A stretch of DNA of 64,000 nucleotides from Leucoraja ocellata (Eukaryota). The position numbers and the translations under genes were made by a program. Each line of letters begins with the position of its first letter. Position 1 is the stretch's first letter. A model generated the notes under the pieces. It was not told where the DNA came from. It did not search any database and saw only the letters and a program-made list of their open reading frames with translations. The stretch spans positions 1,302,001-1,366,000 of the forward strand of contig JAWMAR010000508.1 in NCBI GenBank assembly GCA_036785375.1. The letters are read 5' to 3'. Positions 15,958 to 19,681 of this stretch are shown here, piece after piece.

Positions 15958-16889
15958 ATGACAGTCAGAGCAGTATACTGTTCTGGATGTCAGATGTGGG
16001 AGGTCATGGTTTCGGATGGCCCTCCGGACATCCACATCTGCACCAGGTGCAGCGAGATGGGGCTCCTAAGGGACCGTATTAGGATCCTGGAGCAGCAGCT
16101 CGATGACCTCGCTCTGATCAGGGAGAGTGAGGAGGTCATAGAGGGGAGTTATAGAGAGGTGGTCACTCCAAAACCACGGGAGAGAGACATGTGGGTCACG
16201 TTAAGGAAGGGCAAGGGGCAGAGGCAGGAACGGGTGAGTACTCCAATGTCGGTACACCTCGCAAGTAAGTACTCCTGTTTGAGTACGGATGGGGGTAACA
16301 GCCTACCCGGGGGTAGTGACAGCGGACGGGCCTCCAGCACAGAGACCGGCCCTGTTGCTCCAAAAGCTAGGGAAAAAAGAGGGCCATAGTAATTGGGGAC
16401 TCTATTGTTAGGGGGTCGGATAGGCGATTCTGTGGACGCAGTCGGGAGACCAGGATGGTGGTCTGCCTCCCTGGTGCCAAGGTCTCGGACGTGTCTCAAC
16501 GCATCCAAGATATCCTTAAATCAGAGGGAGAGGAGCCTGAGGTCGTGGTACATATAGGTACCAATGACATAGGAAAAACAAGGGAAGAGGTCCTGAAGGG
16601 AGGATTTAGGGAGTTGGGAGGAGAGTTAAGAAAAAGGACCAAAAAGGTAACCATATCAGGATTACTGCCTGTGCCACGCGACAGTGAGAGTAGGAATGGA
16701 GCGAGGTGGAGGATAAATGCGTGGCTGAAAGACTGGTGCAGAGGGCAGGGATTCAAGTTCCTGGATCATTGGGACTTCTTTTGGGGAAGGTGGGACCTGT
16801 ACAGAAAGGATGGGTTGCACTTGAACCCGAGGGGGACCAATATCCTAGCGGGGAAATTTGCAAAGGCAGCTGGGGAGACTTTAAACTAG
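15958..16889 (+). pseudogene. CR1 ORF1 (Zn-finger plus SGNH/GDSL esterase), frameshift near 16385
   Basis: CSGCQMW..CTRC; VIGDSIVRG, CLPGA, HIGTND, DGLH blocks. Confidence 0.88.
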
Positions 16890-19681
16890 AATGGTTGGGG
16901 CGAGGGACTCAAATAGCGAAAGGTAGTAGACAGAATGGGAGGCAGGAAGCAGAAATGGGAAGCACTCGGACACAAGAGGAGAAAGAAAAAAAAGGAAATA
17001 AACAGAGAATAAGAGACGGGGGTTTTCTTAAATGTGCATATTTTAATGCTAGGAGCATTGTAAGAAAGGTTGATGAGCTTAGAGTCTGGATAGACACCTG
17101 GAAGTATGATGTTGTGGCGATCAGTGAAACGTGGTTGCAGGAGGGCTGTGATTGGAAACTAAATATTCCAGGATTTCGCTGCTTCAGGTGTGATAGAATT
17201 GGAGGGGCAAGAGGTGGAGGTGTTGCATTGCTAGTCAGGGAAGATATTATAGCAGTGCTTTGGCAGGATAGATTGGAGGGCTCATCTAGGAAGGCTATTT
17301 GGGTGTAATTGAGAAGTGGGAAAGGTGTAGCAACTCTTATAGGGGTGTATTATAGACCGCCAAACGGGGAACGAGAATTGGAAGAGCAAATATGTAAGGA
17401 GATAGCAGATATTAGTAGTAAGCACAAGGTAGTGATTGTGGGAGATTTCAACTTTCCACACATAGACTGGGAAACACATTCTGTAAATGGGCTGGAAGGG
17501 TTGGAGTTTGTAAAATGTGTGCAGGATAGTTTTTTGCAGCAATACATAGAGGTACCTACTAGAGGAGGGGCAGTGCTGGACCTCCTGTTAGGAAATGAGA
17601 TGGGACAGGTGGCGGAGGTATGCGTTGGGGAGCACTTCGGGTCCAGTGATCACAATACCATTAGTTTCAAGATAATTATGGAGAGGGTCAGAACTGGACC
17701 TAGGGTTGAGATTTTTGATTGGAGAAAGGCTAACTTTGATGAGATGCGAGATGATTTAAAAGGAGTGAACTGGGACATTTTGTTTTATGGGAGATAAAAA
17801 GAGGGAGATCTACAATAATTATAGGCAGCATGAAGTAAATGAGGTGCTTGAGGAGTATAAGGAATGTAAAAAGAATCTTAAGAAAGAAATTAGAAAAGCT
17901 AAAAGAAGATATGAGGTTGCTTTGGCAAGTAAGGTGAAAGTCAATCCACTATTAATAGCAAAAGGATAACGAGGGATAAAATTGGTCCATTGGAGAAACA
18001 GAGTGGACAGCTATCTGCAGAGCCAAAAGAGATGGGGGAGATATTGAACATTTTTTTTTCTTCGGTATTCACCAAGAAGAAGGATATTGAATTATGTGAG
18101 GTAAGGGAAACTAGTAGAGTAGCTATGGATACTATGAGGTTCAAAGTAAAAGAAGTACTGACACTTTTGAAAAATATAAAAGTGGATAAGTCTCCAGGTC
18201 CTGACAGGATATTCCCTAGGACATTGAGGGAAGTTAGTGTAGAAATAGCCGGGGCTATGACAGAAATATTTCAAATGTCATTAGAAACGGGAATAGTCCC
18301 CGAGGATTGGCGTACTGCGCATGTTGTTCCATTGATTAAAAAGGGTTCTAAGAGTAAACCTAGCAATTATAGACCTGTTAGTTTGACTTCAGTGGTGGGC
18401 AAATTAATGGAAAAGATACTTAGAGACAATATATATAAGCATCTAGATAAACAGGGTCTGATTAGGAACAGTCAACATGGATTTGTGCCTGGAAGGTCAT
18501 GTTTGACTAATCTTCTTGAATTTTTTGAAGAGGTTACTAGGAACATTGACGAGGGTAAAGCAGTGGATGTTGTCTATATGGACTTTAGTAAGGCCTTTGA
18601 CAAGGTTCCTCATGGAAGGTTGGTTAAGAAGGTTCAACTGTTGGGTATAAATGCAGGAATAGCAAGATGGATTCAACAGTGGCTGAATGGGAGAAGCCAG
18701 AGGGTAATGGTGGATGGCTGTTTATCGGGTTGGAGGCAGGTGACTAGTGGGGTGCCTCAGGGATCTGTGTTGGGTCCTTTGTTGTTTGTCATGTACATCA
18801 ATGATCTGGATGAAGGTGTGGTAAATTGGATTAGTAAGTATGCAGATGATACCAAGATAGGGGGTGTTGTGGATAATGAAGAGGATTTCCAAAGTCTACA
18901 GAGTGATTTAGGCCATTTGGAAAAATGGGCTGAAAGATGGCAGATGGAGTTTAATGCTGATAAATGTGAGGTGCTACACCTTGGCAGGACAAATCAAAAT
19001 AGGACGTACATGGTAAATGGTAGGGAATTGAAGAATACAGTTGAACAGAGGGATCTGGGTATAACCGTGCATAGTTCCTTGAAGGTGGAATCTCATATAG
19101 ATAGGGTGGTAAAGAAAGCTTTTGGTATGCTAGCCTTTATAAATCAGAGCATTGAGTATAGAAGCTGGGATGTAATGTTAAAATTGTACAAGGCATTGGT
19201 GAGACCAAATCTGGAGTATGGGGTACAATTTTGGTCGCCAAATTATAGGAAGGATGTCAACAAAATAGAGAGAGTACAGAGGAGATTTACTAGAATGTTG
19301 CCTGGGTTTCAACAACTAAGTTACAGAGATAGGTTGAATAAGTTAGGTCTTTATTCTCTGGAGCGCAGAAGGTTAAGGGGGGACCTGATAGAGGTCTTTA
19401 AAATGATGAGAGGGATAGACAGAGTTGATGTGGACAAGCTTTTCCCTTTGAGAATAGGGAAGATTCAAACAAGAGGACATGACTTCAGAATTAAGGGACA
19501 GAAGTTTAGGGGTAATATGAGGGGGAACTTCTTTACGCAGAGAGTGGTGGCGGTGTGGAATGAGCTCCCAGTGGAAGTGGTGGAGGCAGGTTCATTGGTA
19601 TCATTTAAAAATAAATTGGATAGGCATATGGATGAGAAGGGAATGGAGGGTTATGGTACGAGTGCAGGCAGGTGGGACTAA
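16890..19681 (+). pseudogene. CR1 ORF2 (AP endonuclease plus RT); stop at about 17306, deletions at about 17790 and 17945
   Basis: [29 protein letters not shown]; lesions seen by comparison with the intact copy at 58444-61391. Confidence 0.92.

Follow-up and report, generated by a model that had tools for sequence, protein, structure and literature searches.

A conserved slippery heptamer at the ORF1/ORF2 junction of esterase-type CR1 elements is a candidate -1 frameshift site

In retroviral and long terminal repeat (LTR) retrotransposon Gag-Pol and in coronavirus 1a/1b, the structural open reading frame (ORF) has an X_XXY_YYZ heptamer at its end, from which the -1 frame runs into the ORF of the enzyme. 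Few -1 sites shift as readily as U_UUA_AAC (PMC5009743; published sources are cited throughout from excerpts of their text or supplements). How long interspersed nuclear elements (LINEs) translate ORF2 is an open question, answered for few elements, by reinitiation. Among non-LTR elements, Drosophila HeT-A is reported to need frameshifting (PMC5009743); however, its frameshift lies within gag, the element has no reverse transcriptase (RT), and no ORF1-ORF2 fusion results. Here we analyzed the ORF1/ORF2 junction of a CR1-type LINE present in two copies in 64,000 nucleotides (nt) of Leucoraja ocellata DNA (GenBank assembly GCA_036785375.1, contig JAWMAR010000508.1, positions 1,302,001 to 1,366,000, forward strand), the whole of which is termed the window. 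Its heptamer and frame resemble those of Gag-Pol and coronavirus 1a/1b. Unlike these systems, it belongs to a non-LTR element, the overlap is minimal, with the stop codon adjoining the heptamer, and no pseudoknot or stem-loop was found 5 to 9 nt downstream, where there is no stable first stem (pseudoknots were not modelled explicitly).

The element resembles the esterase-type CR1 (canonical vertebrate CR1, type IV ORF1), which has a zinc-finger-like N-terminus, SGNH esterase, APE endonuclease, RT, and short tandem 3' repeat. ORF1 encodes the SGNH esterase and ORF2 the APE endonuclease and RT; on this domain content, together with a junction resembling rows labelled CR1 in the covered part of PMC13343379, the element is taken to be of CR1 type. 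Its closest named relatives are proteins of the rays Hypanus sabinus and Narcine, with 74 to 80% identity in the endonuclease. Published CR1 accounts describe two ORFs and, in the excerpts covered, do not mention frameshifting (PMC13343379, PMC4120745, PMC2734521, PMC3905857). The terms "frameshift", "slippery", and "overlap" are absent from the covered text of PMC13343379, as is "frameshift" from that of PMC4120745, PMC2734521, PMC3708506, and PMC3905857. The covered text of PMC5009743 does not contain "CR1", HeT-A being its non-LTR case, and that of PMC11835228 deals with retroviral frameshifting only. A full-text literature search found no frameshifting at a CR1 junction; key CR1 papers of 1997-2003 and Repbase Reports lay outside its scope, and an earlier remark is possible.

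In both copies, ORF1 ends on a T_TTA_AAC heptamer in zero-frame phase that directly adjoins the stop codon (Table 1). The end of copy 1 ORF1 was re-read as GAG ACT TTA AAC TAG, as in an initial annotation of the window, which had also identified the -1 frame as ORF2 and reported the same site on the minus strand in copy 2. These claims held: the zero frame closes after the site, and the -1 frame is open from it into the endonuclease, in copy 2 for 984 codons up to the ORF2 stop. As that annotation had cautioned, the copies are 98 to 99% identical, so comparison between them gives no evidence of conservation. The bare 7-mer is common, with 19 matches in the window against 10.6 expected, a total of 19 being reached by 3 of 100 shuffles. 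A phased X_XXY_YYZ heptamer adjoining a stop was found at 2 of the 382 stops of ORFs of at least 60 codons in the window, both of them the CR1 junctions. Inside copy 2 ORF2, phased heptamers occupy 7 of 980 codon positions, which sets the chance level for one junction at about 0.7%. The -1 frame is also open for 62 codons upstream of the heptamer (16694-16886, +), and for 51, 51, 43, and 7 codons in four related loci, L001-L004, respectively; this is probably a by-product of the esterase codons.

These loci came from a scan of GTDB contigs that returned 11 loci, seven of which (L005-L011) were weak bacterial esterase matches and were excluded. L001-L004 are CR1-like, with 32 to 38% esterase identity, and ORF1 ends in TTTAAAC-TAG in L001, L002, and L004 and in TTTAAAG-TAG in L003. 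Their contigs, carrying CR1-type elements with esterase, APE, and RT, stand in records titled Metamycoplasmataceae MAG (metagenome-assembled genome) and Aeromicrobium phragmitis, and are likely co-assembled animal DNA; proteins P0009, P0032, and P0258, which bear bacterial labels, look likewise.

CR1 consensus sequences from Supplementary Table 2 of PMC13343379 were scrutinized by eye over the first 400 letters of each, a range that leaves full-length bird and turtle junctions outside. A motif search of this table gave 44 matches, 19 of them ORF1/ORF2 junction rows, and the stop adjoins the heptamer in 18 of the 19 (11 TAG, 6 TAA, 1 TGA). From their abbreviations, we take these rows to represent alligator, crocodile, bearded dragon, bullfrog, coelacanth, and bowfin, and also halosaur, elephant shark, stingray, sawfish, catshark, and dogfish. 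Because this search was biased by its own search term, it was repeated with an esterase-codon anchor, which gave 12 matches including nine CR1 rows; eight of these show the junction, and all eight carry TTTAAAC followed by a stop. With an endonuclease anchor, the 18 matches listed out of 56 included five CR1 rows: three with the site, one gappy variant, and one starting past the junction. Two dogfish rows, SquAca_CR1-18 and SquAca_CR1-3, have a second motif resembling heptamer, stop, and G-run in the 5' untranslated region. A search for full-length ORF2 relatives using the junction region gave 38 candidates, none significant, and plasmid and phage collections gave no match. The parts searched of the PMC4316615 and PMC2817409 supplements showed no junctions, and the part searched of the PMC2734521 supplement gave no match. 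The site is conserved at the nucleotide level across the divergent relatives recovered, and the heptamer junction is, on sequence comparison, a real and deeply conserved feature.

Since T_TTA_AAC followed by a stop makes the ORF1 protein (ORF1p) end in Leu-Asn (LN), protein C-termini were also examined. Homologues were drawn from 48 matches among 100 candidates and from the best 150 of 12,311, giving 186 distinct proteins including the query, of which 135 reach the catalytic D-x-x-H block. Among these 135, 80 end in LN, 11 in Gly-Asn (GN), and one each in Lys-Asn (KN), Lys-Lys (KK), and Gly-Leu (GL); a slippery-compatible C-terminal dipeptide is therefore present in 94, against an internal-dipeptide background of 5.0% (LN alone, 0.4%). 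LN keeps its terminal position at about 30 to 35% identity, although the stretch that follows the catalytic Asp varies from 25 to 39 residues. The residue preceding LN has pyrimidine-only codon endings in 38 cases versus purine-only endings in one, while that preceding GN is Gln in nine cases and has pyrimidine-only endings in none. Counted on 60% single-linkage clusters, this covariation is 11:0 (LN) vs. 0:5 (GN) (Fisher P = 2.3e-4), and covariation of the third-last residue is what T_TTA_AAC and G_GGA_AAC would require. Of 48 clusters at 60% identity, 17 end in LN and 6 in GN, with 26 compatible altogether, and in a quick tree of the 135 rows a single 22-row clade contains 11 GN, 1 KN, and 1 LN ends. 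The other frame in frame-broken P0032 and P0107 also keeps Phe-Lys-Leu. P0126, ending in Gln-Phe-Phe-His, was considered as a U-rich slippery site and rejected as not compatible.

The in-frame ATG that the initial annotation had noted in good context is present as described, with two strong-context out-of-frame ATGs upstream of it (Table 1). No Met lies between the heptamer and the first endonuclease motif in L001 and L003 (L002, with a frame break in its linker, was excluded). The Asn of this motif, at 17045 in copy 1, is presumably a conserved active-site residue, which a start past the motif would remove. Among 120 ORF2 matches, 34 have Phe-Lys-Leu/Val 33 to 44 residues ahead of the first endonuclease motif (13 residues in one truncated row), and 30 of the 34 have no Met before the endonuclease. 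A further 76 start further on or are otherwise different; in many of these a Met stands at a position occupied by Leu or Val in sister sequences, which we infer to be the product of gene callers accepting TTG/GTG starts. Another 10 lack the motif. Near-stop ATGs occur in all three frames across families, and the overlapping UAAUG stop-start is absent from the window element and L001-L004. In four genomic copies, P0298, P0286, P0225, and P0193, small indels have brought esterase and endonuclease into a single frame. The join in P0298 coincides with the heptamer, and we read all four as mutated copies.

We consider it probable, at roughly 0.8, that -1 frameshifting at this junction gives a fusion of ORF1p with the endonuclease and RT. 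The initial annotation had proposed such an esterase-APE-RT protein and pointed to divergent CR1 junctions as its check, and the comparative evidence supports it: heptamer and -1 phase are kept across families and the in-frame ATG is not. That the slippery site is kept at the same place in sharks to crocodiles makes it likely that ribosomes shift frame there. Most ribosomes would terminate and release free ORF1p, and a minority would slip -1 on UUUAAAC, presumably with tRNA-Leu and tRNA-Asn slipping in tandem from UUA-AAC to UUU-AAA, giving a single ORF1p-linker-APE-RT protein and a Gag/Gag-Pol-like ratio of ORF1p to fusion. The fusion would co-assemble with ORF1p via the ORF1 N-terminal region, tethering the enzyme, and the esterase could act as a membrane anchor by analogy with that of ZfL2-1, a related element whose ORF1p is a coiled-coil dimer that binds liposomes through the esterase (PMC3905857). 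An extended version is more doubtful, namely that since before the jawed vertebrate split the only ORF2 product has been a fusion to a membrane-binding ORF1p, the drivers of the shift being, in place of RNA structure, the stop and a G-run situated where mRNA enters the ribosome, to which a protein of the host or of the element possibly binds.

In place of a pseudoknot, the adjoining stop codon, the G-run that lies 10 nt downstream, or both would provide the stimulation. The layout of heptamer, stop, seven free bases, and 4 to 6 G recurs, with the G-run at the exact position in the window element, in all four loci L001-L004, and, by eye, in 6 of the 19 consensus rows. Thirteen of these rows have at least 4 G no further than 12 nt from the stop; the run is absent in four and cut or borderline in two. 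The run covers third codon positions and may be an unusual stimulator. Two viral signals offer leads only. [quoted passage not shown] At the pea enation mosaic virus -1 site, a nearby stop matters and its identity is free (PMC5009743); that stop lies 3 nt past the site, whereas the CR1 stop, whose effect is putative, adjoins it. With no downstream structure found, the junction is a candidate source of a stimulator type not described before.

Several observations weigh against frameshifting. The proximal fold does not exceed shuffles: only a weak hairpin follows the site, as first annotated (z +0.65), and 151 of 200 shuffles fold equally well. No G-quadruplex appears in the minimum free energy structure of any of six junctions, the best long-range partner of the G-run lies within or about 1 kcal/mol beyond five shuffles in three elements, and Rfam gave no match at E up to 1. 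Selection for Gly codons could account for the G-run, and G is abundant on this strand. The junction would act as a -1 frameshift site of the Gag-Pol kind, yet it does not show the downstream structure of a canonical signal. Among the 135 homologues, 41 end in a non-compatible dipeptide, many of them apparently frame-broken, and among 27 hand-picked rows, scored at tail positions 20 to 31 (background 3.4% per position), a compatible tripeptide near the end is seen in only 16, two of the rows having been counted before; the site may therefore be altered in some clades or missing from them. For the GN and KN ends, the heptamer is deduced from protein sequence only. Two gappy consensus rows depart from the pattern, the gecko EubMac_CR1-1 with a six-letter variant and no clear stop and ScyCan_CR1-13 with no stop after the heptamer. 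The element itself carries an in-frame ATG in good context, a TAATG in three shark rows among the 19 (ScyCan_CR1-1a, SquAca_CR1-17a, and SquAca_CR1-6c) places its ATG in the ORF2 frame, and the 34 ORF2 N-termini, drawn from a small number of related subfamilies, do not represent 34 independent lineages.

These ATGs bear on the main rival, termination-reinitiation as at the UAAUG of SART1 and in human L1, in which the heptamer and stop would be part of the signal and starts would be AUG or non-AUG by family. Reinitiation is established for these two LINEs (PMC2881922, PMC3708506), whose bicistronic RNA makes ORF2 dependent on ORF1 translation, and the ATG at 16955, the TAATG overlap in the three shark rows, a stop that adjoins the motif in nearly all families, and the lack of a classical frameshift structure would all suit it. 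No SART1-type RNA structure was found downstream of a stop-start. L1 ORF2 translation tolerates loss of its AUG, so a missing ATG is compatible with reinitiation as well. However, SART1 and L1 give free ORF2 protein and need no slippery site, and an in-frame ATG is missing from most of the CR1 junctions examined, with no linker ATG in L001 and L003, no Met in 30 of the 34 N-termini, and near-stop ATGs scattered over all three frames. Reinitiation also leaves unexplained why the seven bases before the stop take the X_XXY_YYZ form, with covariation of the third-last codon and switching among LN, GN, and KN. We therefore regard it as improbable as the general route, and it may coexist with frameshifting in the TAATG families.

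Leu-Asn might instead be a C-terminal motif of ORF1p, with the heptamer a by-product of its codons, as its strictly terminal position in 80 of the 135 homologues would allow. This is very unlikely: of six Leu codons, TTA is used in 8/8 anchor-found rows and 4/4 loci, the other frame retains Phe-Lys-Leu, and the preceding residue (Tyr, Gly, Ala, Thr, Ser, or Phe) is limited by its codon ending and not by its chemistry. Even less likely is that ORF2 is reached by RNA processing, with CTAG serving as a splice acceptor or the polymerase slipping on T3-A3. Although TTTAAAC-TAG does end in pyrimidine-AG and the in-frame esterase-endonuclease join in P0298 falls right here, P0298 is best taken for a mutated copy, the AG gives way to TAA in 6/18 rows and TGA in 1/18, and runs of three fall far short of the runs of 9 A or T given for transcriptional slippage (PMC5009743). 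Frameshifting is the reading we prefer over all three.

Table 1. Features of the two CR1 copies in the window (positions are those of the window)
Feature	Position	Strand	Remarks
Slippery heptamer T_TTA_AAC	16880..16886	+	Last two ORF1 codons (Leu-Asn); -1 frame reads Phe-Lys-Leu
ORF1 stop TAG	16887..16889	+	Adjoins heptamer 3' end; TAG, TAA, or TGA in relatives
Out-of-frame ATG (+1 frame), 1 nt past stop	16891..16926	+	Strong context, 11-codon ORF
Weak 5-bp hairpin	16895..16912 (16895-16899 / 16908-16912)	+	-4.5 kcal/mol, z +0.65
G-run GGGG-CGA-GGG	16897..16906	+	Starts 10 nt past heptamer; candidate stimulator
Out-of-frame ATG (ORF1 frame)	16935..17012	+	Strong context, 25-codon ORF overlapping ATG 16955
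In-frame ORF2 ATG in linker	16955..16957	+	Good context; not conserved in relatives
Copy 1 ORF1	15958..16889	+	Cys-x2-Cys...Cys-x2-Cys N-terminus and linker, then SGNH/GDSL esterase
Copy 1 SGNH/GDSL esterase domain	16371-16886	+	PF13472 E 3.8e-15
Copy 1 ORF2	16880..19681	+	55-codon linker, APE endonuclease from about 17045, RT
Copy 2 heptamer	61392..61398	-	Followed by TAG at 61391-61389
Copy 2, whole	61689-58354	-	5'-truncated within ORF1 at about 61689
Copy 2 ORF1, 3' part	61389..61689	-	
Copy 2 ORF2 (APE and RT)	58444..61398	-	PF03372 E 3.4e-14, PF00078 E 1.9e-34

Copy 1 is damaged. Its ORF1 frame is broken near 16374-16386, residues 1-127 and 127-297 of homologue P0006 aligning in different frames, and its ORF2 has a stop at 17306-17308 and has lost 154 nt near 17792-17796 and 17949. 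Its 5' region (15628-15830, +) consists of imperfect tandem repeats with a unit of about 30 to 40 nt. The window is vertebrate DNA with many LINEs and dispersed immunoglobulin-domain exons (V-set/CD22-like and I-set; 8863-9321, 12377-12700, and 19521-20105, +) that probably belong to a siglec/CD22-like gene; copy 1 lies just upstream of one of these exons on the same strand. An AT-rich L1-like LINE (43005-48752, -) has a 325-codon ORF1, a spacer of about 950 nt, and APE and RT domains that a single frame break near 46294-46322 separates; in contrast to the CR1 copies, it has ATGs at the ORF2 start and no slippery junction. Between 38204-42592 and 48937-54874, two repeated blocks of 1773 and 2640 nt are 98.6 to 99.0% identical and represent either a recent duplication or an assembly artefact.

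Esterase-type CR1 LINEs are the dominant repeat of many vertebrate genomes. If the favored reading is true, a conserved -1 frameshift in CR1 would be a second route to LINE ORF2 translation in a very widespread family, and the CR1 replicase would be redefined as an esterase-endonuclease-RT fusion. It would also explain why CR1 ORF2 is often without a usable start codon, and where annotations or retrotransposition constructs begin ORF2 at a downstream Met, the protein they model is perhaps not made. The junction is a 40-nt cassette, and a shift driven by its stop and G-run would represent a new class of -1 frameshift stimulator.

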